A stretch of DNA of 64,000 bases from Halomicronema sp. CCY15110 (GCF_016888165.1 NZ_JACSWC010000299.1:46193-110192); one strand, 5' to 3'; numbered from the stretch's first letter, positions 1,098 to 34,556 are shown. Program-made: numbers and translations. The notes: generated from the letters alone by a model not told the origin.

Positions 1098-2384
1098 CTA
1101 GGTTTGGCGGTATTGGTTGTAGAGAGTGTGGCAGGCTTGGGTGAGGGCTTGGGGATTGCCGTTGGCGTCGTTGATGAGCTGGTCAATTTCGCGCTCGGAA
1201 AACTGAATCGTGCTGTTGGCCAAGCGGACGGCAATATAGGCACGGGCGGTATCTGGTGCCCAAGGGGCAATGGGCTGCTCTTGACAAATATTTTCGAAGG
1301 GGGAAACGGTGAGTTCTTGATTTCGGTCTGGAAACAACATGTCTAAAGACACTCTGGCTGCGATCACAATTTTTAGCGGCGCATCTTGGGTGTCGGCAAT
1401 GCCACGTAGCTGTTCTCGAATATTACGGGTAAATCCTGCTTGGGCAAAGCGTTCCACTTCATCCAGCAACAGCAAATAGGAATGGTTGGCTTTTTCTCGG
1501 TTCAGCTTGCGCACTAAGGCGCGGCCATTCAGCGTTTCGATCTTGATCGCGGTGCAGAGATCTTCAAAGAATTCCGCTTCCGTAAACACGTTGGTGAGGT
1601 CAAGAAAGATAGGAGTGCGATCAACAGTTAACCGTTCCGGGGCTTGGCGCATGAGGGCGCGCAGGAGCGAAGACTTCCCCGAATTATGCTCGCCAATCAG
1701 GGCCACGTTATGGTTCGTGTTCAGCAACTCGAACAGGGTATTGAGCAGCCGTTCACGGTCAAAAAACTGCTCAGGCTGTTCAATGCCGCCGTGCAGCGGA
1801 AAAAACGGATTGGTGGCGTCCTCGGGATTGTCGGCAAGGGCCGGGAATGACGGCTGACTGTCGGGCTTGGCGCGATCGGTTGCCTCATTTTCTGAGACCG
1901 CCTCTAAATTCAGCTCACCGAGAAAATTGGCGCGACGCGTGTAATAGTCCTTTCGCTGCTGCTCGTTACTGGCCAACCGTTCCAGAATAAGGGTCGCCAG
2001 CTGTTCGGGCGTTTTCTGATCCAATTCAATGAAGCCAGAGGCAGGGCTGAGCCCATCGGCAGTGGCATAGTCAAAGCGGCAGGGCATTACCCGTTCGCCG
2101 TCAGCTTTCGTCAGCAAGCCGTAGATCTGCACCCATTCCCAGCCAGTCCAGCGTTTCTGGTCGTAGTCTGGGCACAGCACCGGCACAATCAGAGCAGACT
2201 GTTCGCTGTAGAGTCGCGGCAAATAGAGGCCCAGGTCATAACGAGCAAATTCCGCCTCGCAATACTTGTCGTAGAGAATCTGCGCTTCGCCAAAATAGTC
2301 GGCCAGTAGTGCCGCTACCTGTTCGACAAAGTCGCGCTTTTCTCCTGCAAAGGAAAAGGCCACCCGAAATCGCTTGGTGCTCAT
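1098..2384 (-). CDS. TIR-like domain fused to a P-loop NTPase (AAA/STAND-like ATPase)
   Basis: N-term FRVAFSFAGEKRDFVEQVAALL...SALIVPVLCPDYDQKRWTGWEW has a TIR-like pattern (FxFxGE ... W..E). Walker A is ALIGEHNSGKSSLL and Walker B is YLLLLDEVE. The gene ends 58 bp upstream of the glycine-zipper ORF on the same strand. Confidence 0.7.
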   Translation of the reverse strand: MSTKRFRVAFSFAGEKRDFVEQVAALLADYFGEAQILYDKYCEAEFARYDLGLYLPRLYSEQSALIVPVLCPDYDQKRWTGWEWVQIYGLLTKADGERVMPCRFDYATADGLSPASGFIELDQKTPEQLATLILERLASNEQQRKDYYTRRANFLGELNLEAVSENEATDRAKPDSQPSFPALADNPEDATNPFFPLHGGIEQPEQFFDRERLLNTLFELLNTNHNVALIGEHNSGKSSLLRALMRQAPERLTVDRTPIFLDLTNVFTEAEFFEDLCTAIKIETLNGRALVRKLNREKANHSYLLLLDEVERFAQAGFTRNIREQLRGIADTQDAPLKIVIAARVSLDMLFPDRNQELTVSPFENICQEQPIAPWAPDTARAYIAVRLANSTIQFSEREIDQLINDANGNPQALTQACHTLYNQYRQT

Positions 2385-4187: not shown

Positions 4188-5267
4188 TTGACCATGTCCT
4201 CTTCTTTCTCTGCTTCGGAGCCTGCCACTCCTGTCATTCCTGTCACCGCCGGGGCGATCGCCACCGCCCCGGTGGACTTGTCGGAGTGGCAGCGCTTTCT
4301 CCAGTCCCAACCTTTGAATGCTGAGGCCATCGCCAGCCTGGATGAGCCAGCTTGCGATCTGGACGCCACACCGTCAGCCTCAATGTGGCGGCTGCTGGGC
4401 CAAACGCTCGGGAGCCTGTCTAGTAGTTGGCCTCTCGGCCTCTTAGCTGGGGCCGTCGCCGCTGGGAACCTGACGCTGCTAGCCTTTGATCACCTATTGA
4501 CGTTGCCGACAGAGCCTGACTGTGACGCTTGGGCGAGCCTCGACTTGGCGCGTGACCAATTAACCTGCTGGCAAACGGCGATCGCAAACGGCGACACTCA
4601 GGCAAAGCAAATGGCCCTGGCCGAGGTGAGCCGCTGGCCCGTCAGCCATCCCCTCTTTAGCGAAGGGCAAAACTTATTGGAGGACTGGTCGCACACCGCG
4701 CTGCAAGAAGCCCAGCAGGCCGCCACCGACGACAATTGGGCCACGGCGATCGCCCTGGTCGCACAAGTGCCTGGGCAGAGCCCGCACTTTCAGGCCGCCC
4801 AGGCACTGCAAGCCCAGCTACAAACTCAACAACAGAAATTAGCCCAGGCGCTTAACACTCAAGCTCAGTCGGCCCTCGCAGTGGCGGACTGGGCGACCGC
4901 TTACCAGGCTCTATCACAGCTACAGCAACTCGATCACGCTGCCGTCCCCTTAGATTCACCCCAGCAACTAGCGCAGCAAATCACCGCCGAACGCGAAGCT
5001 GTCCGATTGTGGAATGAAGCCCAGCGGTTATGGGATTCTGGCCTGGTCACCAATCGCGACACGGCGATCGCGATCGCCTATCAAATCGATTCCCGTACCC
5101 ATCGCTGGCAAGCCATTCAACCCGTCGTGAGTCGTTGGCGCGAGGCCCAGCTGACCCTGGCGCAGACCGACACCGCCCCCACTGCAACCCCCATGTCTCC
5201 GCCCCAACTGGTTTCGTTCCCTTACCAACCGCACTTTAGCGGGAGTCTTCAGCCCGTTCAGTATTAG
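4188..5267 (+). CDS. Hypothetical Ala/Gln-rich protein
   Basis: Long ORF with low-complexity A/Q-rich, coiled-coil-like sequence. No recognisable domain. Confidence 0.4.
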   Translation: MTMSSSFSASEPATPVIPVTAGAIATAPVDLSEWQRFLQSQPLNAEAIASLDEPACDLDATPSASMWRLLGQTLGSLSSSWPLGLLAGAVAAGNLTLLAFDHLLTLPTEPDCDAWASLDLARDQLTCWQTAIANGDTQAKQMALAEVSRWPVSHPLFSEGQNLLEDWSHTALQEAQQAATDDNWATAIALVAQVPGQSPHFQAAQALQAQLQTQQQKLAQALNTQAQSALAVADWATAYQALSQLQQLDHAAVPLDSPQQLAQQITAEREAVRLWNEAQRLWDSGLVTNRDTAIAIAYQIDSRTHRWQAIQPVVSRWREAQLTLAQTDTAPTATPMSPPQLVSFPYQPHFSGSLQPVQY

Positions 5268-6401: not shown

Positions 6402-7178
6402 ATGCCATCTCCCGTTCAGACTTATCAATTACTGGCAACTAAAACCGACCACCAAGGGGTGCAGGTTGGGTTTATCGATCGCACCGAAGATGTCACGCAT
6501 TTTTTGACCGCGACGGGGTTAGATAAACCGCACCTGACCTTAGTCATTGTGGGCGGTGCCAGTGGCTTGGATAATGACCAGCAGACCCAGCTAGACGGGC
6601 TCTTTCATCGCGTCCTAGCGCCCCTAGCGGAAGAAATGCAGCTCTATGTTGTGGATGGCGGCACGGATGCAGGCGTCATGCGACTGATGGGACAGGCCCG
6701 CACAGCTATTAACGGGACTTTTCCGCTGATTGGGGTGGCCCCGCGATCGCTGGTCAGCTTGCCCGACCAACCCGCGACTCATCCCGACGCCTCCACCCTA
6801 GAACCGAACCATACGCACTGCCTGCTGGTCCCTGGCGAACAGTGGGGCGATGAATCTCGCTGGATTGCCGAGATTGCCACCCATTTGTCGGGCGAGCACG
6901 AGTCCATGACTATCTTGATCAATGGCGGTTCCGTGACCGTCAGCGATGCCTACGCCAGTGTGGCCGCTGGGCGGGAAATTGTGATTGTGGCGGGTACCGG
7001 ACGCATTGCCGACGACATTGTGCAAGCGCTACGCTACAAAGTCGTCGAAGGCAGAACCATTGAAGATCCCCGGCTCGCCAAACTAATTGACACCTCGGAC
7101 GACTTACTGACTGCGATCGATTTAGACAACCGTCCTGCCGATTTCATCCAAGATCTCAAAACTTTGCTCATGACCTAA
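6402..7178 (+). CDS. Rossmann-like SLOG/LOG-family domain protein (putative nucleotide/ligand-binding)
   Basis: Gly-rich strand-loop motifs LTLVIVGGASGLDND, YVVDGGTDAGVMRLMGQA and TILINGGSVTV are reminiscent of LOG/SLOG Rossmann folds. Lies 142 bp upstream of the TIR-WD40 gene on the same strand. Confidence 0.45.
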   Translation: MPSPVQTYQLLATKTDHQGVQVGFIDRTEDVTHFLTATGLDKPHLTLVIVGGASGLDNDQQTQLDGLFHRVLAPLAEEMQLYVVDGGTDAGVMRLMGQARTAINGTFPLIGVAPRSLVSLPDQPATHPDASTLEPNHTHCLLVPGEQWGDESRWIAEIATHLSGEHESMTILINGGSVTVSDAYASVAAGREIVIVAGTGRIADDIVQALRYKVVEGRTIEDPRLAKLIDTSDDLLTAIDLDNRPADFIQDLKTLLMT

Positions 7179-7320
7179 GCCTGCCAGGCATCATTGGCCA
7201 TTTGCCCACGGTTCAGTCAGAGCCACCCAGTCGGGCAAATTTCCTTCGATATGATAGGAGGCAAGGAGTTCCCGCCATGGGCCAGATTGGGATCGTGGTC
7301 CGTGGCCTCAGCAATCAGGA

Positions 7321-10300
7321 GTGCCCATGCCAGATGATGCGTTAGACGCGCTACTCAAAGGTGAACCGAGGAAGCGGCAGTCGCGCCTGCCAGGGCTCAA
7401 GGTGGCAGATATTTTAACCATGCCATCCGAACAGCAATCGCTAGTGAATTGGTTGCTGCGTCATTATGAAGCGAATGCTGAAACCATTGCCCAGAAGATC
7501 AATCAACCGCTGCCGCAAGTGCAATCGAGCCTGGATAACCTGATCCAGCAGGGATTACTTAAAACGATCAACCGTCAAGGCGCTACTCTTTATCGCGTCA
7601 AGCTAGCGCCGAAGTCGGGCCGACAAATGCCGACGGATGTCTGGCAGGTATTGGATCAAGACACTAAGCAGGCGAATGTCTTCATCTCTTACTCGCGGCG
7701 CAACAAGGAATTTGTGCAAGAACTGCACGGCGCGTTGGAGGCCACCAAACGCGAAGTCTGGGTCGATTGGGAAAATATTCCCGTCGCGGTGGACTGGTGG
7801 CAGGAAATTCAACTGGGCATTGAATTAGCCGATACCTTCGTCTTTGTGCTGAGTCCTGACTCTGTGTCCTCTAAGGTGTGTGGCCAGGAAATAGAAGAAG
7901 CTCTGAAGCACAACAAACGCCTGGTGCCCGTCATCTGCCAGGATGTGCAACCGGATCAGGTACATCCCGAACTGGCCCGCCTCAACTGGATTTTCTTACG
8001 CGCTCAAGACGACTTTCAACAAGGATTCAAAAACCTATTAGAAGCCCTAGACCAAGATTTAGACTACGTTCGCACCCATACACGCCTTCTCGTTCGGGCA
8101 CTGGAATGGGATCGCAACGGCCAGGATGGTAGCTATCTGCTGCGGGGAGCCGATCTCGATCGCGCCAACCACTACCTCGCCCAAGGCAAAGATCAGGAAC
8201 CGCGTCCCACTGCCCTGCACCATCAATATGTTATCGCCAGTGGCGAAGTCGAAGCCGCTGTCAGGGATCTCGAACTGAGACGCCAAAAGGCGGCGATGGC
8301 AGGGCAACAGCGGTGGTTGCAACTCGTCACGGCAATTTCGGTTTTGGCCGTGGCGATGGGCATCACTAGTTGGGGTCTATCGCGGCAGGCCCAAAGCGCC
8401 CAAAAGCGGGCTGAGCAAGCTCAACTCCGAGCCCTGAACCAGTCGGCGCAGGCGTTATTCCTGTCCGACCAACGGTTTGACGCCCTCTTGTCGGCGACCC
8501 AAGCGGGACAGCTCTTCCAATCTTTAGAGCCCGAATGGCAGACGCCTGAGCTGCGATCGCAAGTGCTCAGTGCGCTCCAGCAGTCGCTGTTCTGGATTCA
8601 AGAGCGCAATCGTTTAGAGGGACATACCGGCACCGTTTGGCAGGTCGCCTTTAGCCCCGATGAGCAAAAACTAGCTTCGGTCAGTGCCGATGGCGACATT
8701 CGCCTGTGGGGACTCGATGGCCAGCTCTTAAACGTGCTGGAATGTGACGGCTCCCCCTTGCTGGATGTCGCTTTTTCGGCCGATGGCGATCGCCTCGTGG
8801 CGGTTGATGATGACGGCTCGATACACTTATGGAGTTCGAATGGCATCCTACAGGGCACCTGGCAGGCCCACCAACAGCCCACCCGAGCCGTCGCCTTTGC
8901 GCCATCAGGCACCCAAATCGCCACTGCCAGCGAAGATGCCACCGTCAAAGTTTGGTCCACAGAGGGCGACTTAGTAGCCACCCTAGAGGGCGATATCGGG
9001 GGCTTTCAGGCGCTCTTGTGGACGGCTGACGACCAAATTATCGCCGGCGACGAACAAGGCAATATCTACGTTTGGGACGCTACCGGAGTCTTGATTAGCC
9101 AGTTCTCCAGTTCCTCTGAGGCGCTGATTGCCCTGGCCTTGAGTCCCGATGGGGCCACCCTAGCAGCCGTCGGGGACGATCGCCAGGTCAGGCTACACAA
9201 TCTCGCCGATCAGTCCCTGATCCGCACATTCCCCGCCCACAACGGTGCCATCTACAACGTGCAGTTCACCCCCGATGGCGAACAGCTAATCACCGTAGGT
9301 GACGATAAGGTCATTCGCCTGTGGCAGCTAGACGGTACGGCATCGGCTAACCTCGTCGGCCACACGGGCTTGATTGCGGCGCTCGCCATTAGCCCTGATG
9401 GCTTGATGATCGCCACCTCTGGCGGCGATCACGCCATTCGATTATGGGATTTACAGCGCGATAACCTGCACCTGCTGCTGGGTCATCAAGACTCCGTTAA
9501 TAGTGTGGCGATCGCCCCGACCGAAGACCTGATTGTCACGGGCGGGCGCGATGGCACGGTGCGTCTCTGGCAGGAATCGGGCACGCCCCTCAACACGCTA
9601 ACCGGCCACGACAGAGCCGTCAATGCGGTGGCCTTTAGCCCCGATGGTGAACTCGTAGCCTCTGCGGGGGCCGATGGCACCGTGCGCCTCTGGCAAGATG
9701 TCCAGTCCAACACCCCGACCGCTCAAGTCCTGACAGGGCACGTGGGAGCCGTCAACAATGTCGCCTTTAGCCCCGATGGTGAGCTCGTGGCTTCCGTCGG
9801 CGAAGACCACACTCTCCGCTTGTGGCGACCCGATGGCCGCTTAGTGACCACCATCGAAGAAGCTCACCGAGATGGAGCCTTTGGCGTCGCCTTTAGTCCC
9901 GATGGGCAACAAATTGTGACCAGCGGCTGGGATCACCTGGCGAAAATCTGGCCCGTTGCCGACATCGACCAGGCCAAGCCGCAAATTTTAGCCGGCCACC
10001 AAGGGTGGGTGCTCGATGCTCAGTTCAGTCCGGATGGAGCCCTGATCGCCACCGCCAGTTACGACAATTCAGTACGGCTTTGGCAGGCCAGTACGGGCGA
10101 ACCGTTGACCACCCTGCAGGGCCATAGGGATGGAGTGTTATCGGTGGCATTTACCCCCAGTGGCCAAAACATTGTTACCGCGAGCAACGACAACTCCATT
10201 CGCATTTGGGACCTAGAGGGTCGAACCGTCTCGACCCTTTCCGGGCATACCCAAGGCGTGAACGCAGTCGCAGTCGACCCCAAAGAGGGCTATGTGGTGT

Positions 10301-10503
10301 CCGCCAGCAGTGATGGCCGGGGCCTGATTTGGGAACGTGATGGCATTGAAGATATTGCCACCTCGCTAGCGAGTAGCTGTGACTGGCTAGCGGATTACCT
10401 CGCCCACAACCGCCAAGATGACCCGACGCTGCAGACGCTCTGCCAGGCACCAGAGGCCGATACAGCAGTCGGTACGGCGACAACCGTCACAGACACACCC
10501 TGA
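7321..10503 (+). CDS. Winged-helix + TIR domain + WD40-repeat protein
   Basis: TIR motif ANVFISYSRRNKEFVQEL...WVDWENIPVAVDWWQEIQLGIE...VFVLSPDSVSSKVCGQEIEEA. A hydrophobic segment near residue 330 follows. After it come more than 12 WD40 repeats (GH...WD patterns such as LEGHTGTVWQVAFSPD ... IRLWD). N-terminal HTH-like region SEQQSLVNWLLRHYEANAETIAQKINQPLPQVQSSLDNLIQQGLL. Confidence 0.8.
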   Translation: MPMPDDALDALLKGEPRKRQSRLPGLKVADILTMPSEQQSLVNWLLRHYEANAETIAQKINQPLPQVQSSLDNLIQQGLLKTINRQGATLYRVKLAPKSGRQMPTDVWQVLDQDTKQANVFISYSRRNKEFVQELHGALEATKREVWVDWENIPVAVDWWQEIQLGIELADTFVFVLSPDSVSSKVCGQEIEEALKHNKRLVPVICQDVQPDQVHPELARLNWIFLRAQDDFQQGFKNLLEALDQDLDYVRTHTRLLVRALEWDRNGQDGSYLLRGADLDRANHYLAQGKDQEPRPTALHHQYVIASGEVEAAVRDLELRRQKAAMAGQQRWLQLVTAISVLAVAMGITSWGLSRQAQSAQKRAEQAQLRALNQSAQALFLSDQRFDALLSATQAGQLFQSLEPEWQTPELRSQVLSALQQSLFWIQERNRLEGHTGTVWQVAFSPDEQKLASVSADGDIRLWGLDGQLLNVLECDGSPLLDVAFSADGDRLVAVDDDGSIHLWSSNGILQGTWQAHQQPTRAVAFAPSGTQIATASEDATVKVWSTEGDLVATLEGDIGGFQALLWTADDQIIAGDEQGNIYVWDATGVLISQFSSSSEALIALALSPDGATLAAVGDDRQVRLHNLADQSLIRTFPAHNGAIYNVQFTPDGEQLITVGDDKVIRLWQLDGTASANLVGHTGLIAALAISPDGLMIATSGGDHAIRLWDLQRDNLHLLLGHQDSVNSVAIAPTEDLIVTGGRDGTVRLWQESGTPLNTLTGHDRAVNAVAFSPDGELVASAGADGTVRLWQDVQSNTPTAQVLTGHVGAVNNVAFSPDGELVASVGEDHTLRLWRPDGRLVTTIEEAHRDGAFGVAFSPDGQQIVTSGWDHLAKIWPVADIDQAKPQILAGHQGWVLDAQFSPDGALIATASYDNSVRLWQASTGEPLTTLQGHRDGVLSVAFTPSGQNIVTASNDNSIRIWDLEGRTVSTLSGHTQGVNAVAVDPKEGYVVSASSDGRGLIWERDGIEDIATSLASSCDWLADYLAHNRQDDPTLQTLCQAPEADTAVGTATTVTDTP

Positions 10504-11140
10504 ACTCTGTCTGAGCGATCGCGCTGAACGGCTAAAAACCTGCCCTCAATCCTCATGATCACCGGTTCTCCCCTGGGCATGAGGGACGGGGGAAGCGAGG
10601 CGCGGGGCGATCTGGCCTGTTGCGATCGCCCCGCGCCGATCAAAATTGCGAAGAACTCAGCGCCAAAACCGGCCCAGGCATTTTTATGTCGTCGCGTTTT
10701 ATTGACTTATGTAACGAAGACTCATTTATTTGTGACCGACAACTCTCGAAAAACCCGAAAATCCACTGAAGCCAATACTTTTCGGGAGTGTTGCAAACTG
10801 TATCAAGCTTAACAACTCGTAAATTGTGTTGCCCCGAGAGCAGTGTATAAAATTCTGGAGGGCTTAATTCAGGAGCTGCAATGACTTGCAAATAACGCTC
10901 TCGGTTATAGCAAGCATTTAATTCCAAAGGACTGTCTCTCTTGTTACATCGATTTTTCTCCTCTTTGCTGCAAAGCAGTCTTTGTGTCAAAGGTTGAAGA
11001 AATGTCAAGAAAATAAGAGTCGACTGTTGCCTCTCTTTAAGATCCTCTCATATACGCTTTTAGGCAGCGTGAGCTGACTAACTGGCGATTCCAGTCAAGA
11101 AAGAACAAACCAAACTCATCTATTTAGGAGACTGAGTCTA

Positions 11141-11659
11141 ATGTTTGACGTTTATTCCAAGGTTGTTTCCCAAGCTGACGCTCGTGGCGACTTCCTGTCC
11201 ATGGATCAGATCGATGCGCTCCAGAAAACAGTTGCTGATGGCAACAAGCGTCTGGACTCCGTTAACCGGATCACCAGCAGCGCTTCCAAGATCGTCTCTG
11301 ATGCCGCTCGGGCTTTGTTTGCTGAGCAGCCTCAGTTGATCGCTCCTGGTGGCAACGCTTACACCAACCGCCGCATGGCTGCTTGCTTGCGCGACATGGA
11401 AATCATCTTGCGCTACATCACCTACGCGGTGTTCACCGGCGACTCTTCCGTGCTGAACGATCGCTGCTTGAATGGTTTGCGTGAGACCTACGTTGCTCTG
11501 GGTGTTCCCGGTGCTTCCGTTGCCGCTGGCGTTGAGAAGATGAAGGCTTCTGCCATTGCGATCGTGAACGATCCTGCGAACATCACCCAAGGTGATTGCT
11601 CCAGCCTCGTTTCCGAAATCGGCAGCTACTTCGACCTCGCTGCTGCTGCGGTTGCCTAG
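11141..11659 (+). CDS. cpcB: C-phycocyanin beta subunit
   Basis: [20 protein letters not shown]...[19 protein letters not shown] is canonical CpcB sequence. 172 aa. RBS aggag lies 8 nt upstream. Confidence 0.95.
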
Positions 11660-11743
11660 TCTTAGGCCGTTTTCTGTGCTTAGCGCACGACTTTTCTCAA
11701 ATTACCAAGACCAAACTTGTACATCTTTTAGGAGATAGTTCCA

Positions 11744-12232
11744 ATGAAAACTCCTCTGACTGAAGCAGTTGCTGCTGCTGATTCCCAGGGCCGCTTTTTG
11801 AGCAACACTGAAATGCAGTCTGCTTTTGGCCGCTTGGACAAAGCTGCTTCTGGTTTAGAAGCTGCTAAGACCTTGACTGCCAAGGCTGATTCCTTAGTTT
11901 CTGGTGCAGCTCAAGCGGTTTACAACAAATTCCCTTACACCACCCAAATGCAAGGCCCCAACTACGCTGCTGATCAGCGTGGTAAGGACAAGTGTGCTCG
12001 TGACATCGGCTACTACCTGCGCATGGTCACCTATTGCTGCATCTCTGGTGGTACTGGCCCCATGGATGAGTACCTCATCGCGGGTTTGGATGAAATCAAC
12101 AGCACGTTTGAATTGTCCCCCAGCTGGTACGTGGAAGCGCTCGGCAACATCAAGGCGAGCCACGGTTTGAGTGGTGACCCTGCTGTAATCGCTAACTCCT
12201 ACCTCGACTACGCAATCAACGCTCTCAGCTAG
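11744..12232 (+). CDS. cpcA: C-phycocyanin alpha subunit
   Basis: [20 protein letters not shown]...[16 protein letters not shown] is canonical CpcA. 162 aa. RBS aggag is present. Confidence 0.95.
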
Positions 12233-30941: not shown

Positions 30942-33059
30942 TTAGCTCAATAGCTTGCGCGCCTGCTCCTGCATCGTGCCCGATACGTATGTCGAAGGTG
31001 ATATATCTTGAACTTCAACCCTAGTGACTTTGACTCCCCACGGTTCAGTAGCTTCATCAAGAATATCTAACAGTGCTTGATTCAATTCATTCCTACTACC
31101 GAAGACGTGCGACAAAGATATTTTGCCGATTTCCGATCTCAATGCCGCGACGACCACCTCACGAATGGCATCACTAACATTTTCAATTTCGTAGTAAGTA
31201 CGCTCTAGATCCATGATTTTCCAATACACTACAGCGTCGATATCCAACGGAAAGTTGTCATGTGTAGTAATTGAAAGTGGCAGCACATCTAGCATGCGTT
31301 CCCGAATACTTTCTTCCCAGACAATCGTGTCTAAAAAAGGAACTATGAAATTTAGACCTGGTCTAAGCTTTCTGTGGTATCGGCCCAAGCGCTCGACTAA
31401 TGCTTGATTGCTCTGATTGACTATTCTTATAGCACCAACTGTGTAGCCACCAATGACTATGAGGGCTAAGATGGGAAATAGAGAGGGAGCCATGGCCGCA
31501 TTTGGAGTGGCGTAAAGAAGGATAAAAGCAAAAAAGCCAATGATCACATATGGAATTATCCATTTTTTAAGGAATAACGTATTATTAGTTTTTCTCCGTG
31601 AATTTTCTGCTTCCGTATTTTGATCTGCGCTCTTTTTAATGAATTCGATAACTTGAACAAAATTCTTAGTATATCTTTCTGCCCAAACAAAATTATTCTC
31701 GTATTTTCTTTTCCAATTAAGTGCTATTTTCAAGTCAAGATCTCTCATGAGGGCAGCCTTTCCTTCTTCATATGCTTGGGCACGATCTGACAAACGTATA
31801 TAGTCTCGTGCTGCCTCAGCTTCTTCATCCATCCAACTCTGAAGACGGCCCCAAATACGCATGAGGCTTTCTTGTGAAATATCAATGATGGTGTCTTCCT
31901 GCAGATCGTTGACTAAAGGTGGCATTAGATACGAAACACCTCGCTCTCGAAAACGATTAATGATCGGAATAAGCTCTGATTTGTTTTTTCTAGTGACTGA
32001 ACCGAGTTCTGCCACAGAACAAGGGCGACGGATTTCTCGATTATCAACACCACGTTCTGTTAATCTCTTAAAGATTGTTTCAATTATTTTCCGAGATTCC
32101 TGATTAGAGAAGCTCAGATAAATTTGATCGGCATGAAGAGAGAGGGCCTGGGCCATGCCGCCGATCTCCTCGTAATGTTCCAGATCCAGCGGGACGTCTG
32201 GAGTGTGCTGATCTTCCCAGTGGTCCCAGGTGCGCATGAGGGCATGCTGCAAAATCGGCAACTGATCGGGGTTATCCCCGGTGTCGTTCAGCAACCGATT
32301 TACCAGGCGCGGCGTAATGGTCGCGCCGCCCACCGCCACTGGCCCCTCAATGGCTCGCCGCAACTGATCCCGCGTCAGTCGAGGAATCAGATACTGGCTA
32401 TCGTTCAGGGTTTCCGGCAGGTCACGAAACTGGGCACAGTCGCCCAAAAAGTCCGATCGCATGGTCAGCACCACAAAAATCGGCACCGTCCGCTGGTTCA
32501 CCGCGGCGAGCAGCAGCTTCACAAAGGCGGCCGCCTCATCTTCCGCCTCTAAGTAATGGCCCCCGGCCGCCGCCTGCGCTTTAAACCGAAACAGTTCCTC
32601 AAACTGGTCGACCACGACTAGCAGGCTTTCATCTGGGGCCAGGCGAGCTTGCTGGGTTACCTCCACCAGGCCCAGGCTGCCCCGCCGCAGGGTACTCTCC
32701 GTCAGGGCTCGGCGAATCACGGCTTCATCATGAGCTGCTGACACCCCAAACACATCAGGATCGTTCAACGCCGTGGCCAACTTGTACATCGGCGCACTGC
32801 CCGGCCGCAACACGGCGATGCGCCAGCTAGAGGTGGCTCCCGGCAAAAAGCCGCTGTAAAGCGAGGGCAGCAACCCCGCCCGCACCAGGGAAGATTTGCC
32901 ACTGCCAGAGGTGCCGACCACTCCCAAAAAGCGGGTACGATGCAGGCGCCGGATGAGCTCGTCAGACTGCCCTTCGCGGCCAAAAAACAGATGTTCCTCA
33001 TCCAGTTCAAAGGGCCGCAGACCGGGGAAGGGATTGGTGCGATTAGGTGTGACTACCAT
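30942..33059 (-). CDS. STAND-type P-loop NTPase fused to two TM helices and an SPFH/band-7 (stomatin/HflK-like) domain
   Basis: N-term NPFPGLRPFELDEEHLFFGREGQSDEL...FLGVVGTSGSGKSSLVRAGLLPSL (Walker A) and Walker B LLVVVDQFEE. TM helices WIIPYVIIGFFAFILLYATP and LFPILALIVIGGYTVGAI. C-term GLNFIVPFLDTIVW...ITTHDNFPLDIDAVVYWKI...VVVAALRSEIGKISLSHVF...WGVKVTRVEVQDI is an SPFH domain. The NTPase half is GC-rich. The TM/SPFH half (approx 30942-32100) is markedly AT-rich. Confidence 0.75.
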   Translation of the reverse strand: MVVTPNRTNPFPGLRPFELDEEHLFFGREGQSDELIRRLHRTRFLGVVGTSGSGKSSLVRAGLLPSLYSGFLPGATSSWRIAVLRPGSAPMYKLATALNDPDVFGVSAAHDEAVIRRALTESTLRRGSLGLVEVTQQARLAPDESLLVVVDQFEELFRFKAQAAAGGHYLEAEDEAAAFVKLLLAAVNQRTVPIFVVLTMRSDFLGDCAQFRDLPETLNDSQYLIPRLTRDQLRRAIEGPVAVGGATITPRLVNRLLNDTGDNPDQLPILQHALMRTWDHWEDQHTPDVPLDLEHYEEIGGMAQALSLHADQIYLSFSNQESRKIIETIFKRLTERGVDNREIRRPCSVAELGSVTRKNKSELIPIINRFRERGVSYLMPPLVNDLQEDTIIDISQESLMRIWGRLQSWMDEEAEAARDYIRLSDRAQAYEEGKAALMRDLDLKIALNWKRKYENNFVWAERYTKNFVQVIEFIKKSADQNTEAENSRRKTNNTLFLKKWIIPYVIIGFFAFILLYATPNAAMAPSLFPILALIVIGGYTVGAIRIVNQSNQALVERLGRYHRKLRPGLNFIVPFLDTIVWEESIRERMLDVLPLSITTHDNFPLDIDAVVYWKIMDLERTYYEIENVSDAIREVVVAALRSEIGKISLSHVFGSRNELNQALLDILDEATEPWGVKVTRVEVQDISPSTYVSGTMQEQARKLLS

Positions 33060-33062
33060 CGG

Positions 33063-34556
33063 TTATACTGACCCTCCGGCATGGCCTAACGAAGCGACAA
33101 ACTCGGCCAACAGCGTGGGCTGAAAGCCCTGATCGCCAGGAATCATTAACACCTCTGGATCAGAAAACTTTTGCTTGCCGGGGGCCGCCACATACACCGC
33201 CTTTGCCAGCAACGGTTTCGAGCGACCGTACAGCGTCTTTTTCAAGGCATTCAGGCGACGCTTGAGCCACAGGGCACTGGCCTCGCCGTAGTAAATTAGC
33301 ACCGCCTCACACTGCTGAATCAACGCCTCCGAGCGGCTGAGGGTGCCCTGCTCGTAGTCCGGCAGCATCACCTGAAAATGCTGCTCTAACCACTCATACA
33401 GCGGCTCAATTGCCGGATTGTCTAGATCGCGCTCATCGCAGTCCAAATAAATCTGCACGCGGCCATCGGGGGCCCGGTCCAGGGGCCGCGCCACCGGCGG
33501 CGTCAAGCGGGTATAGATGATATCTTTCAACGCTTCCACATTGGTGCGGATAAAATCGGGGTCGCTCTGGAGTTCGGTCACGAAGTCATCCGGGGTGATG
33601 GCATCGGTATCGGGGGGCAGCCACAGCAACCGCGAAAAGTCGGACCGTCCTTGCCCACATTGGGCCGCTAGCGCCACCTGGTCTCGGGTGCGCAGGGTCG
33701 CCAACTGGCGATAAATCTGTTCCTGAGTGGGCGACTGCCCCGCCGGTGGCTGACTCGGGTTGGGACTCAGCAGATGCACCGACAAGTGGGCGCGGGTCAG
33801 CGCTTCACACACTGTTTGCGCAAACGCCCCCGGCTCACTGGGCAACGGCTGATCCGGCAGCACCTGATGGCCCGCCTGTTCTAACTCCCGCCGAATGCAC
33901 TCGCGATCGACTTGCAAATCGGGGGTGGTGTCGGCCAGATAAATCACCTTGCGGTCAGCGGGCACCGCTCCCAGCAAAGGTGCCGCCAGGGCCGGCGGCC
34001 CGAGCTGAGCATCGAGAATGTCCAGGGTTTGATGAATGTCGTAGGCTAAGTCATTCAACTTGGCGTAAAACTTCCGCTCCTGCTCTGGCCCATAGACCCG
34101 GTCAAACTCTTGGGGCCGACCGGCATCATCAATTTCGTAAAATTCATACCCCAAGAAATTTGCCACCACCGCTGGGTGCTGCTCGATGGGCAGGTAAGTT
34201 TTGATCACCTTAAACAACCGTGTTTTGGTCTCTCCGGCCCGCAAGCCGCCCTGCTGATCCGCCGCCTGACAAAACCCCTGGAGCTCTCTCATACACCAGT
34301 CCGATTGCAAATAGCGCGGCGACAGCACCGACACCAGCAGTGCCGACTGAGTGAGGGCCTCAAAAATGGCCTCATCGAGATCTTCGTTGCCCCAGAGTCG
34401 GCGATCGCGCCAAATTCGCGATTCTTTGCCCCGCAGCTGCGACAAACGAATCTCCAAGGCTTTGTGGAAGGCGGATATCCAACCCGCTTCGTCGGGGTTT
34501 AACGATTGGTTATCAATGTGGGTGAAGCTGATAAAGACATCCTGCGCGAAAGTCAT
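33063..34556 (-). CDS. TIR domain protein (N-terminal TIR plus two further TIR-like/Rossmann-like repeats)
   Basis: DVFISFTHIDN...WISAFHKALEIRLSQLRGKESRIWRD...LLVSVLSPRYLQSDWCMRELQGF is a canonical TIR. Two further repeats with a similar strand pattern (KVIYLADT..., RVQIYLDCDE...AVLIYYGEAS). Its stop lies 3 nt upstream of the NTPase-SPFH gene start. Confidence 0.75.
   Translation of the reverse strand: MTFAQDVFISFTHIDNQSLNPDEAGWISAFHKALEIRLSQLRGKESRIWRDRRLWGNEDLDEAIFEALTQSALLVSVLSPRYLQSDWCMRELQGFCQAADQQGGLRAGETKTRLFKVIKTYLPIEQHPAVVANFLGYEFYEIDDAGRPQEFDRVYGPEQERKFYAKLNDLAYDIHQTLDILDAQLGPPALAAPLLGAVPADRKVIYLADTTPDLQVDRECIRRELEQAGHQVLPDQPLPSEPGAFAQTVCEALTRAHLSVHLLSPNPSQPPAGQSPTQEQIYRQLATLRTRDQVALAAQCGQGRSDFSRLLWLPPDTDAITPDDFVTELQSDPDFIRTNVEALKDIIYTRLTPPVARPLDRAPDGRVQIYLDCDERDLDNPAIEPLYEWLEQHFQVMLPDYEQGTLSRSEALIQQCEAVLIYYGEASALWLKRRLNALKKTLYGRSKPLLAKAVYVAAPGKQKFSDPEVLMIPGDQGFQPTLLAEFVASLGHAGGSV

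Follow-up and report, generated by a model that had tools for sequence, protein, structure and literature searches.

Positions 6402 to 10503 of the window, by which is meant the whole stretch of 64,000 nucleotides analyzed here, carry two adjacent genes whose products raise the question of whether they act together in nucleotide-based signaling. The initial annotation proposed a two-gene module in which a WD40 region serves as sensor, a TIR domain generates a signal, and a SLOG-type protein is the nucleotide-binding partner. The features of the locus are as follows.

6402 to 7178, plus strand: ORF1, 258 aa, ATG start; LSDAT_prok (SLOG superfamily)
7241 to 7268, plus strand: conserved spacer motif TTCCTTCGATATGATAGGAGGCAAGGAG, including a -10-like TATGAT at 7250 to 7255
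7327 to 10503, plus strand: ORF2, wHTH-TIR-helix/TM-WD40 protein, 1,058 aa from the conserved ATG at 7327
7402 to 7599, plus strand: N-terminal winged helix-turn-helix (wHTH), ORF2 residues about 28 to 93 (TrmB and AF2 model)
7678 to 8040, plus strand: TIR domain, ORF2 residues 120 to 240 (TIR_2)
8059 to 8640, plus strand: MID region, juxtamembrane helices and then a single uninterrupted helix of ~84 residues
8314 to 8379, plus strand: hydrophobic segment WLQLVTAISVLAVAMGITSWGL, ORF2 residues 332 to 353, Kyte-Doolittle mean of 1.87
8644 to 10350, plus strand: WD40 repeats, about 14 (PF00400)

ORF1 encodes a predicted receptor of the LSDAT clade

The ORF1 product matches Pfam LSDAT_prok (PF18171) across profile positions 3 to 194 of 195 (E value of 1.2e-72; 243.7 bits; cutoff, 25.4) and LSDAT_euk with an E value of 2e-12, and is, as judged from these profiles, a member of the prokaryotic LSDAT clade of SLOG. 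The glycine-rich motifs from which a SLOG-type protein had been proposed are indeed present, at G51-G52-A-S-G55, G86-G87-T-D-A-G-V-M-R-L-M-G97, and I173-N-G-G176. An assignment to LOG or TIGR00725 was rejected, the NCBIfam model TIGR00725 scoring 12.2 bits (cutoff, 106.9) with no LOG match in Pfam, as was an assignment to the LD-carboxypeptidases, Pfam reporting LSDAT models only; by the same Pfam search, the protein contains neither a SIR2 nor another effector domain. The Thoeris models of NCBIfam and the ThsA models of PADLOC did not match ORF1, and PADLOC lacks models both for ORF1 and for the SLATT partner described below.

The AF2 model of the protein (pLDDT of 88.5) displays a Rossmannoid fold of the TRPM MHR1/2 type, the best Foldseek matches being to TRPM2 MHR1/2 (E value of 7e-15; TMq of 0.73, with a range of 0.70 to 0.78 across TRPM2), while a profile of the ORF1 family matches the TRPM2 MHR1/2 crystal chain 7aov_A with an E value of 3e-16. 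The motifs GGA, GGT.aGVM, NHTH, and GSGR.AD are common to both. Residues G51, G52, G86, G87, G175, G176, and R201 are invariant across 18 homologs, and the invariant polar residues of the family comprise E134, H137, H139, D150, E151, S152, R201, and D204. Position arithmetic on the profile alignment equates the GSGR arginine, R201, with R358 of human TRPM2, which touches the phosphates of ADPR (PMC6759353), and the tryptophan of the invariant WGDES motif (W148) aligns with the ADPR-clamping tyrosine of TRPM2. ORF1 is, accordingly, predicted to be a stand-alone receptor for an ADP-ribose-type ligand; because the equivalent of TRPM2 R302 is not conserved, this ligand may not be ADPR itself.

ORF2 combines a putative TIR enzyme with a presumed WD40 sensor

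The open reading frame of 1,060 aa reported previously (7321 to 10503, opening with a GTG 142 bp beyond ORF1) was recovered by ORF finding, but alignment of orthologous upstream regions places the conserved start at the ATG at 7327, with AGGAG ahead of it at 7317 to 7321, thus giving a protein of 1,058 aa and a gap of 148 bp. The N-terminal winged helix, also anticipated, scores just short of the Pfam threshold (TrmB, 25.1 bits against 25.6) and is supported by the AF2 (AlphaFold) model, in which model residues 26 to 91 adopt an H-H-H-H-beta-beta arrangement with a pLDDT of 72 to 88; the homolog P0133 is labeled "predicted ArsR family transcriptional regulator" by a JGI source.

The TIR domain, which had been called canonical, matches TIR_2 with 99.1 bits (cutoff, 28). 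Within ORF2, it is the part under the tightest constraint (dN of 0.045 to 0.05, with an overall dN/dS for ORF2 of 0.08 to 0.14). Its candidate catalytic glutamate, E190 (encoded at 7888 to 7890), lies in the sequence KVCGQE190IEEA, which aligns with SDWCWDELEQA of the Cat1 TIR NADase and corresponds to the (W/V)CxxE motif that we take to carry the catalytic residue of TIR domains. This glutamate is kept in all 57 of the 57 linked TIR domains. Foldseek neighbors of the domain include SPARTA TIR-APAZ, Cat1, SARM1, and AbTir, with the TIR domains of TLR1/6 also listed. With its glutamate retained, the domain probably acts as an enzyme rather than as a scaffold. The type III Thoeris TIR equivalog NF058526 (ThcB4) yielded 28 bits (cutoff, 220), and matches of PADLOC ThsB models were generic only, at E values of 1e-6 or weaker.

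The MID region is modeled as helices at residues 245 to 263, 274 to 286, 296 to 379, 383 to 398, and 407 to 428, and its first part (DLDY..HTRL..ALEWDR....LLRG.DL..A..L) shares 52% identity with TIR-CHASE2 paralogs as far as their first TM helix. The hydrophobic segment noted earlier corresponds to WLQLVTAISVLAVAMGITSWGL, the sole such segment in ORF2, whose position between TIR and WD40 is constant across all related architectures and which matches TM1 of the CHASE2 paralog P0155 in the alignment. It is predicted to form a single transmembrane helix, which would anchor the protein in the membrane. More than 12 WD40 repeats had been counted; PF00400 matches 13 stretches (419 bits), numerous beta-propeller models also match, and the repeats, detectable in the DNA itself, number about 14, enough for two seven-bladed propellers. 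This region, the presumed sensor, is the least constrained part of ORF2, with a dN of 0.16 to 0.27 against 0.05 for the TIR domain, i.e., evolving 3 to 5 times faster. The domain features of ORF1 and ORF2 could not be attributed to chance.

The pair is retained in a lineage-specific manner

The orthologous pair is retained in loci L001 to L014, L016 to L021, L092, and L093 to L096 although their flanks differ; about 20 related, Leptolyngbya/Halomicronema-like genomes have kept it. Its distribution is patchy among cyanobacteria and vertical inside the clade, and strong purifying selection (dN/dS of 0.05 to 0.15) acts on ORF1 and ORF2, each of which is intact. Beyond this clade, at least five further lineages have independently recruited distinct TIR-WD40 architectures next to LSDAT, almost always less than 2 kb away and mostly on the same strand; such independent juxtapositions involve proteins with three to five TIR domains and WD40 repeats in Microcoleus and Moorena, and TIR-WD40 in Phormidium.

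The linkage of SLOG and TIR genes, described at the outset as a repeated one, is therefore real but lineage specific: a TIR gene lies within 3 kb of LSDAT in 31 of 80 loci (TIR genes beyond 3 kb being almost absent from the same loci), but the remaining 49 are without one, so that the association recurs in several lineages and does not extend to the whole family. The finding that would speak against a signaling pair, namely, identity as a well-known metabolic enzyme with no conserved linkage to TIR genes, was not encountered. In 21 of the 80 loci, SLATT and TIR genes are both missing within 3 kb and LSDAT stands among housekeeping genes, suggesting that the receptor can function independently of a linked generator or can respond to an endogenous metabolite. 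LSDAT or SLATT is found near only 3 of about 74 more distant TIR-MID paralogs.

The spacer motif TTCCTTCGATATGATAGGAGGCAAGGAG, located about 60 to 70 nt 5' of the conserved ATG, is common to the window and to L001 to L004, L006 to L011, L014, and L092, and is missing from the SLATT-bearing loci; no Rfam family matches it. It is probably a promoter specific to the TIR gene, or else an operator, and its conserved -10-like element suggests that ORF1 and ORF2 may be transcribed separately.

In the window, the pair is situated between the chorismate lyase gene and the cpc operon, with housekeeping genes as neighbors, and its surroundings contain neither a tRNA nor flanking repeats nor a GC anomaly. 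This context does not resemble a defense island, although two other TIR/nSTAND genes occur within the same 64 kb. What looks like vertical inheritance, coupled with high constraint on both genes, is atypical for anti-phage systems.

A third component, SLATT, is missing from the window

This SLOG gene is most often partnered by a two-transmembrane SLATT/DUF4231 pore protein, whose gene lies no more than 3 kb from LSDAT in 39 of 80 loci and is usually directly 3' of it. SLATT proteins are predicted to be pores regulated by ADPr derivatives (PMC9503650). The gene order LSDAT-SLATT-TIR-WD40 is observed in L016, L017, L020, L021, L096, and Moorena, LSDAT-DUF4231-SLATT_1 fusions are encoded on two plasmids, and in PCC 6406 SLATT and TIR-WD40 adjoin each other, LSDAT being located alone at a distance of 4.5 Mb. 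No SLATT was detected in the 64-kb window by phmmer (E value of ≤10) or HMM searches (E value of ≤1), tblastn giving low-complexity matches only, and L019 retains a 40-codon SLATT remnant. SLATT has been deleted in the clade of the window. At least two to three independent SLATT losses are apparent, the pair having been kept each time. The two-gene module as originally conceived is supported, but it missed this third component: the pair of the window would represent the remainder of a three-gene module after loss of its pore-forming partner, and is still strongly conserved.

Proposed function and alternative explanations

We consider it somewhat probable that the two genes derive, by loss of SLATT, from a Thoeris-like module of three genes for NAD-derived signaling, composed of an LSDAT/SLOG receptor, a SLATT two-transmembrane pore, and a TIR-WD40 sensor-generator. 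The single transmembrane helix would anchor the ORF2 product such that the wHTH and TIR domains are cytoplasmic and the double WD40 propeller is probably outside. Binding of a cue by the WD40 region would promote TIR-TIR association, upon which the TIR domain, via E190, would split NAD+ to yield an ADP-ribose-type product (ADPR, cADPR, or an isomer). The LSDAT protein would bind this product in the homolog of the ADPR pocket of TRPM2 MHR1/2, where R201 would contact the phosphates, W148 would serve as aromatic clamp, and the Gly-rich loops would contribute. In the ancestral cassette, ligand-loaded LSDAT would open or assemble the adjoining SLATT pore, paralleling the gating of the TRPM2 channel by the same domain. 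Because SLATT is deleted, the output in the lineage of the window must differ from a pore; it may consist of NAD+ consumption by the TIR domain itself, LSDAT acting as product sensor or feedback regulator, or may involve an unlinked target. With SLATT gone, no effector was identifiable in the 64-kb window, and the pathway as drawn is, therefore, without an output. The proposed division into sensor, generator, and nucleotide-binding partner fits the invariant TIR glutamate, the structural match to NAD-cleaving TIR domains, and the TRPM2-like pocket, and in this respect sequence and models agree with the initial annotation. Weighing against the module are the SLATT- and TIR-free LSDAT loci, the unlinked TIR-MID paralogs, the -10-like motif in the spacer, the setting without island marks, the vertical inheritance under high constraint, the lack of a PADLOC model, and the non-conserved R302 equivalent.

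The same components may instead serve physiological signaling and not immunity, which we regard as unlikely. The membrane-bound TIR-WD40 protein would sense an extracytoplasmic or envelope cue and produce an NAD-derived second messenger, to be read by LSDAT, and possibly by the wHTH, in tuning cell physiology or filament behavior without cell death, SLATT being dispensable. Its biochemistry overlaps with that of the SLATT-less module; purpose and output differ. Vertical inheritance under strong constraint (dN/dS of 0.05 to 0.15; TIR dN of about 0.05), a housekeeping neighborhood without island marks, retention of the pair through at least two to three SLATT losses, and the many LSDAT genes that stand alone amid metabolic genes are consistent with such a role, as is the fusion of the same TIR-juxtamembrane module to the extracytoplasmic sensor CHASE2 in paralogs. 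The layout also resembles that of ToxR-type membrane regulators, which consist of an N-terminal wHTH, a TM segment, and an outside sensor, although the wHTH of ORF2 is without a known target. The pore-type effector of the ancestral cassette and the rapid divergence of the WD40 part (3 to 5 times faster than TIR), as expected for a diversifying sensor, speak against this role, and experimentally characterized bacterial modules of TIR with SLOG or SLATT are all anti-phage abortive-infection systems (bioRxiv 10.64898/2025.12.03.692087).

It appears quite improbable that LSDAT is an enzyme and not a receptor, i.e., a LOG-like N-glycosidase or a SLOG processing ADPr derivatives, by which the TIR product would be degraded or matured, either setting a threshold by clearing the signal or performing a second step of messenger synthesis. 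In favor of an enzyme, SLOG clades span enzymes to non-catalytic sensors (PMC9503650), and the family has the invariant polar residues listed above. The LOG motif is PGGxGTxEE, which GSGRTAD resembles, and the lack of a fused effector domain is more readily understood in an enzyme. However, NHTH and GSGR.AD are common to TRPM2 MHR1/2, where they are described as a ligand-binding site without a catalytic role (PMC6759353), fusion of LSDAT to SLATT in two lineages is the usual sensor-effector arrangement, and LOG families gave no significant match (12 bits against 106.9 for TIGR00725). That the adjacency is coincidental or historical, reflecting two independent conserved genes or a decaying remnant without joint function after SLATT loss, is very improbable. 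Survival of the pair amid changed flanks in about 20 species, independent recruitment of different TIR-WD40 architectures by five or more further lineages to a position beside LSDAT, strong purifying selection on two intact genes, and continued adjacency after at least two to three independent SLATT losses all oppose it, even if the majority of LSDAT family members and of TIR-MID paralogs show no linkage, the WD40-less HTH-TIR-MID paralogs are not next to LSDAT, the TIR gene has a separate promoter-like motif 5' of it, and PCC 6406 carries LSDAT apart from the other two genes.

Comparison with known systems

Nucleotide-dependent conflict systems of the LSDAT/SLOG-SLATT(-TIR) type were reportedly predicted by Burroughs, Zhang, Schaffer, Iyer, and Aravind (NAR 2015). 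They are cited here via the Pfam names PF18171/PF18181, PMC9503650, and PMC7159879, and the literature searched yielded no experimental test of any member of the class. The window shares with them the SLOG clade (LSDAT_prok) and an adjoining TIR gene (148 bp 3'), presumed to generate an ADPr-derived signal, and its relatives share the SLATT partner (DUF4231, SLATT_1, and SLATT_3). Unlike these systems, the lineage of the window is without an adjoining or fused SLATT, and its generator is a membrane-anchored wHTH-TIR-WD40 protein.

Thoeris systems of type I employ a TIR protein and a SLOG effector, and those of type VII a TIR protein and SLATT with cADPR as signal (bioRxiv 10.64898/2025.12.03.692087). 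As in type I (ThsB TIR and ThsA SIR2-SLOG; signal, 3'cADPR), the TIR domain of the window would make an NAD-derived signal that SLOG reads; however, ThsA SLOG, which is fused to a SIR2 NADase effector, belongs to another clade (YpsA-like per PMC9503650), and ThsB is a small soluble TIR protein, unlike ORF2. Assignment to type I was rejected, as ORF1 matches LSDAT models only and there is no SLOG-SIR2 fusion; type III was likewise rejected, the ThcB TIR equivalog models not being matched. PCC 6406 and the L016-type relatives resemble type VII (TIR and the SLATT effector ThsH; signal, canonical cADPR) in having SLATT directly 5' of TIR-WD40. Type VII, however, comprises two genes, with SLATT thought to bind cADPR itself, whereas the window has an extra LSDAT receptor, no SLATT, and thus no TIR-SLATT operon, and its TIR protein has wHTH, TM, and WD40 modules.

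ORF1 is homologous in fold and motifs to the N-terminal MHR1/2 (LSDAT_euk) of TRPM2, with the phosphate-binding arginine and aromatic clamp conserved, and the domain is coupled to a membrane pore in both settings: within one protein in TRPM2, and with SLATT in bacteria, either in cis or through a shared operon. It differs in being a stand-alone protein of 258 aa, in lacking a conserved R302 equivalent, and in that its pore partner, where present, is a two-TM SLATT and not a six-TM TRP channel. By analogy of layout only, ORF2 also recalls the animal Toll-like receptors in its repeat-domain sensor, single TM helix, and cytoplasmic TIR domain (predicted topology), but its TIR domain is N-terminal with the catalytic glutamate kept, and its sensor is WD40 and not LRR. 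The combination of a SLATT-less LSDAT with a membrane wHTH-TIR-WD40 protein thus represents a variant of a class that has so far been predicted computationally.

Genomic context of the LSDAT and TIR-WD40 genes

The LSDAT (SLOG-type) gene, ORF1, and the wHTH-TIR-WD40 gene, ORF2, of this filamentous cyanobacterium (cpcB/cpcA at 11141-12232) were confirmed at the positions which the initial annotation had assigned to them, and two further TIR/STAND loci were identified in the window.

1098-2384 (-): TIR_2 plus nSTAND1 NTPase protein, 428 aa (TIR_2 27 bits, just below cutoff)
6402-7178 (+): ORF1, LSDAT_prok protein, 258 aa
7321-10503 (+): ORF2, wHTH-TIR-WD40 protein (conserved start ATG 7327, with AGGAG ahead)
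30942-33059 (-): nSTAND1 NTPase fused to an SPFH/Band 7 domain, 705 aa, after the 497-aa TIR_2 protein
33063-34556 (-): TIR_2 protein of the second TIR/STAND module, 497 aa

Full synteny with the window was observed in OZ349076.1 of Leptolyngbya iicbica, which encodes an LSDAT protein 90% identical to ORF1, and no tRNA, flanking repeats or GC shift that would mark a mobile island were found around the pair. The TIR-nSTAND gene at 1098-2384, which is located 4 kb upstream of the pair and is adjoined by a Pro/Thr-rich low-complexity ORF (186-884, +), is possibly truncated, since its L. iicbica counterpart (locus L092, 2629-5988) encodes 1119 aa; it was discounted as part of the system because a counterpart beside the pair was present only in L. 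iicbica and in none of the other LSDAT loci compared. A 359-aa ORF at 4188-5267 was also rejected as a component, having no Pfam match and counterparts in three loci only (L007, L012 and L014; 26-43% identity). The second TIR/STAND module (30942-34556, -) lies beside carB.

ORF1 resembles the ADP-ribose-binding domain of TRPM2

The SLOG-type identity initially proposed for ORF1 is borne out by a full-length match to Pfam LSDAT_prok ("SLOG in TRPM, prokaryote"; E 1.2e-72), LSDAT being the sole domain found by Pfam, and all of the glycine-rich motifs quoted for it were located (G51-G52-A-S-G55, G86-G87-T-D-A-G-V-M-R-L-M-G97 and I173-N-G-G176). Identity as a LOG, an LD-carboxypeptidase or another metabolic enzyme, which had been raised at the same time as the contrary case, was ruled out by the Pfam and NCBIfam profile results (TIGR00725, 12 bits versus a cutoff of 106.9).

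The AlphaFold model of ORF1, obtained with 18 homologues as input, is confident (pLDDT 88.5, pTM 0.89), and its best structural matches are TRPM MHR1/2 domains, headed by ADP-ribose-bound TRPM2 (E 7e-15, TMq 0.70-0.78); the ORF1 family profile also matches the TRPM2 MHR1/2 crystal chain (E 3e-16). Motifs common to the ORF1 family and TRPM2 MHR1/2 comprise GGA, GGT.aGVM, NHTH, GG..TL and GSGR.AD. The arginine of GSGR, R201 in ORF1, is invariant and corresponds, by position arithmetic from the profile search, to human TRPM2 R358, which touches the phosphates of ADPR (Huang et al. 2019, PMC6759353). W148, the invariant tryptophan of the WGDES motif, aligns with the ADPR-clamping tyrosine of TRPM2, which we infer to be Y295 through an indirect mapping based on the Y-x6-R spacing in the zebrafish sequence. 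The equivalent of TRPM2 R302 is not conserved in the ORF1 family, and the ligand may therefore be a relative of ADPR rather than ADPR itself.

ORF2 encodes a putative membrane-anchored TIR protein

The ORF2 product consists of five parts, namely a winged helix, a TIR domain, juxtamembrane helices followed by a long helix, a hydrophobic segment and WD40 repeats. Each element previously read from the sequence was recovered: the winged helix, which is borderline in Pfam (TrmB, 25.1 versus a cutoff of 25.6 bits) and modelled as H-H-H-H-beta-beta (pLDDT 72-88); the TIR domain (Pfam, 99 bits); the hydrophobic segment at residues 332-353, which is the sole strongly hydrophobic stretch of ORF2; and the WD40 repeats, first put at more than 12 and here counted at about 14. 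In the ORF2 model, the TIR domain is followed by the juxtamembrane helices and then by one continuous helix of ~84 residues, within which the hydrophobic segment is embedded. The motif KVCGQE190IEEA lines up with the Cat1 NADase motif that contains the catalytic Glu, the predicted catalytic Glu is invariant across the linked TIR domains (57/57), and the closest structural neighbours of the ORF2 TIR are the NAD-cleaving TIRs of SPARTA, Cat1, SARM1 and AbTir. TAL-effector matches to the TIR query were dismissed as artefacts, being the sum of many tiny repeat matches.

In paralogues that are 40-55% identical, this TIR-juxtamembrane module is joined to TPR, CHAT or CHASE2 domains. In the TIR-CHASE2 protein P0155, 52% similarity to ORF2 extends right up to the first TM helix, whose place in the alignment coincides with that of the ORF2 hydrophobic segment; as CHASE2 is an extracytoplasmic sensor domain, this alignment favours, purely by analogy, an arrangement in which the TIR domain is inside and the WD40 repeats are outside. 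Proteins of ~450-500 aa with wHTH, TIR and juxtamembrane/TM regions and without WD40 repeats (P0124-P0133, loci L086-L089) are 60-68% identical to the ORF2 protein; no LSDAT gene lies alongside them, and at three of these four loci (L086-L088) the gene adjoins a nitroreductase gene.

LSDAT and TIR genes are recurrently linked

A scan of species-representative genomes yielded 470 loci with an ORF1 relative, of which the best 80, all cyanobacterial, were analysed. An orthologous wHTH-TIR-WD40 gene is located downstream of the LSDAT gene in L001-L014 and L016-L021 (LSDAT identity 90% to 51%), and the flanks vary, chorismate lyase being upstream in some loci only and the cpc operon downstream at no locus other than those of the window and L. 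iicbica. At more distant loci (LSDAT identity <=54%), other TIR-WD40 proteins adjoin LSDAT; 3-TIR proteins occur beside it in Microcoleus and Moorena, a 5-TIR protein in L023 and a TIR-WD40 protein without HTH in Phormidium LEGE 05292.

In the tandem-TIR proteins (L036, L041 and L052 in Microcoleus; L059, L061, L077 and L079 in Moorena; L023), 3-5 TIRs precede a hydrophobic segment and WD40 repeats, every TIR keeps its catalytic Glu, and two such genes are sometimes found in a row next to LSDAT. At the Phormidium locus (L047), a 310-aa PG_binding_1 (peptidoglycan-binding) protein, encoded at 10993-11925 between LSDAT and TIR-WD40, sits in the slot held by SLATT in other loci.

With a TIR HMM built iteratively, a TIR gene was recognised no more than 3 kb from LSDAT in 31 of the best 80 of 470 loci, with almost none farther out. 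In a reciprocal test, 80 metagenomic loci were retrieved with a query spanning the TIR domain and the juxtamembrane/long-helix region (TIR-MID): LSDAT was upstream of all four close orthologues, and only 3 of ~74 distant paralogues were near LSDAT or SLATT. HTH-TIR-MID paralogues of ~480 aa that lack WD40 repeats do not neighbour LSDAT. The co-occurrence, which the initial annotation had proposed to check, is thus recurrent and specific, though not family-wide. Neither SLATT nor TIR lies within 3 kb in 21 of the 80 loci; in these, LSDAT lies amid housekeeping genes and no alternative partner recurs, merely local synteny among close relatives.

A SLATT gene is the usual third component and has been lost repeatedly

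In L016, L017, L020, L021 and L096, a gene of 256-294 aa between LSDAT and TIR-WD40 encodes a SLATT 2TM protein, a predicted pore (Pfam DUF4231, E 1e-28, and SLATT_3; NCBIfam SLATT_1, 104 bits versus a cutoff of 41), and the order in Moorena is LSDAT, SLATT (DUF4231+SLATT_1), 3xTIR-WD40. Of the best 80 of 470 loci, 39 have SLATT no more than 3 kb from LSDAT, generally immediately downstream of it; 11 of these have a TIR gene as well, and the other 28 have SLATT only. The three orthologues are split in Leptolyngbya PCC 6406, with SLATT and TIR-WD40 together at 0.55 Mb and LSDAT alone at 5.09 Mb. On plasmids of Hymenobacter tibetensis and Ca. Chlorohelix allophototropha, LSDAT_prok, DUF4231 and SLATT_1 form single polypeptides (L173, 5950-7959, and L174, 5983-7860; 669 and 625 aa), and this kind of fusion classically indicates a sensor coupled to its effector. 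The Chlorohelix fusion lies amid toxin-antitoxin and integrase genes.

No SLATT-like ORF was found in the 64-kb window and no SLATT remnant in the 142-bp spacer, the best tblastn matches in the window being Pro/Thr-rich low-complexity sequence (309-725), and no named protein of the window's clade was among the matches listed in the SLATT homologue search. At L019, the first ~40 SLATT codons survive between LSDAT and TIR-WD40. In NJ trees of both proteins (no bootstrap), the SLATT-less window clade is sister to the SLATT-bearing L016/L017, and L019 and L018 represent separate losses within another SLATT-bearing clade; these positions imply at least two or three losses of SLATT, at each of which LSDAT and TIR-WD40 remained adjacent and essentially intact. 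The L018 TIR-WD40 orthologue (6619-9890) is split into overlapping ORFs in different frames, a 112-aa HTH ORF and a 979-aa TIR-WD40 ORF, possibly through a frameshift, pseudogenisation or assembly error (low-coverage MAG).

Selection and a spacer motif

Strong purifying selection acts on both genes (dN/dS 0.05-0.15; synonymous sites are close to saturation, and dS is saturated in many comparisons), which implies that the SLATT-less form is functional. The most constrained part of ORF2 is the TIR domain (dN about 0.05) and the least is the WD40 region (0.16-0.27). The spacer contains the following element:

7241-7268: spacer motif TTCCTTCGATATGATAGGAGGCAAGGAG, with a -10-like TATGAT at 7250-7255

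This motif lies ~60-70 nt upstream of the TIR-WD40 start and is confined to the SLATT-less clade; its -10-like hexamer marks it as a possible separate promoter of the TIR gene, or else as a possible operator for the encoded wHTH. No known RNA family matched the spacer.

Proposed function

On balance, it is considered probable that the locus specifies Thoeris-like NAD-derived signalling, with TIR-WD40 as generator, LSDAT as receptor and SLATT as ancestral pore. This model is backed by the domains identified, the conservation of catalytic and pocket residues, the recurrence of the linkage, the three-gene order of the ancestor, the loss of SLATT and the selection described here. A cue would be sensed by the WD40 propellers, whereupon the TIR domains may associate and cleave NAD+ to an ADPR-type product, which LSDAT would bind as ADPR is bound by TRPM2 MHR1/2; the ligand-bound LSDAT of the ancestral cassette would then open or assemble the SLATT pore. 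In the SLATT-less form, the TIR domain itself might deplete NAD+ with LSDAT as a feedback sensor, or the output may be an unlinked effector or a non-lethal signalling role.

Among the rival explanations, a role in physiological signalling is considered unlikely. Equally doubtful is a self-sufficient, non-suicidal second-messenger pathway, in which a Toll-receptor-like protein, with its WD40 sensor outside and its TIR enzyme and DNA-binding wHTH inside, would respond to a cue from the envelope or from outside the cell by making an NAD-derived messenger, and a TRPM2-type LSDAT domain standing on its own would read this messenger; such a pathway would stay under strong constraint after repeated loss of its pore effector. 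That the LSDAT protein is an enzyme appears quite improbable. Least credible is a coincidental or decaying adjacency.

Returning to the NAD-derived signalling model, the locus and its relatives form a natural series of LSDAT-SLATT fusion, LSDAT-SLATT-TIR operon, split genes and SLATT-less pair, which opens to test which NAD-derived molecule a WD40-coupled membrane TIR makes, whether LSDAT reads that molecule and what role an LSDAT receptor has without an attached pore. A further suggestion from the locus is that certain TIR enzymes of bacteria are organised as transmembrane receptors, and, if the SLATT-less form is functional, TIR/SLOG signalling extends beyond abortive infection. Among bacterial proteins, the prokaryotic LSDAT clade is the most closely related to the domain with which TRPM2 channels sense ADP-ribose; should the second-messenger pathway prove true, bacteria would have a physiological equivalent of ADPR signalling, and the pathway would be a living intermediate that shows how the ligand-sensing domain of TRPM operated prior to its fusion to a channel.

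Relationship to known systems

A SLOG domain reads the TIR signal in type I Thoeris, and cADPR made by TIR activates a SLATT effector in type VII Thoeris (bioRxiv 10.64898/2025.12.03.692087); because of these precedents, the proposed mechanism follows an experimentally established logic. The Aravind group has predicted that SLATT is a pore regulated by an ADPr-derivative and that some SLOG clades are non-catalytic sensors (PMC9503650; PMC7159879). No experimentally characterised member of the prokaryotic LSDAT clade was found in the literature searched. Systems combining SLOG/LSDAT, SLATT and TIR were reportedly predicted computationally by Burroughs et al. in 2015, according to later papers of the same group and Pfam names.

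Assignment to a known Thoeris type or any PADLOC system was rejected, as PADLOC models matched neither ORF1 nor SLATT and gave generic TIR matches only for ORF2. When assessed for membership, the window pair fell outside Thoeris types I, III and VII, and it differs from the predicted LSDAT-SLATT system in missing the defining SLATT gene. The bacterial LSDAT-SLATT fusion parallels TRPM channels, in which LSDAT is fused to a pore. Three features are new relative to the literature found: a form that lacks SLATT yet is strongly conserved, a natural series in which the genes are fused, operonic, split or reduced, and a TIR generator laid out as a membrane receptor. The window pair probably works like Thoeris and LSDAT-SLATT systems, yet is a member of no characterised one.
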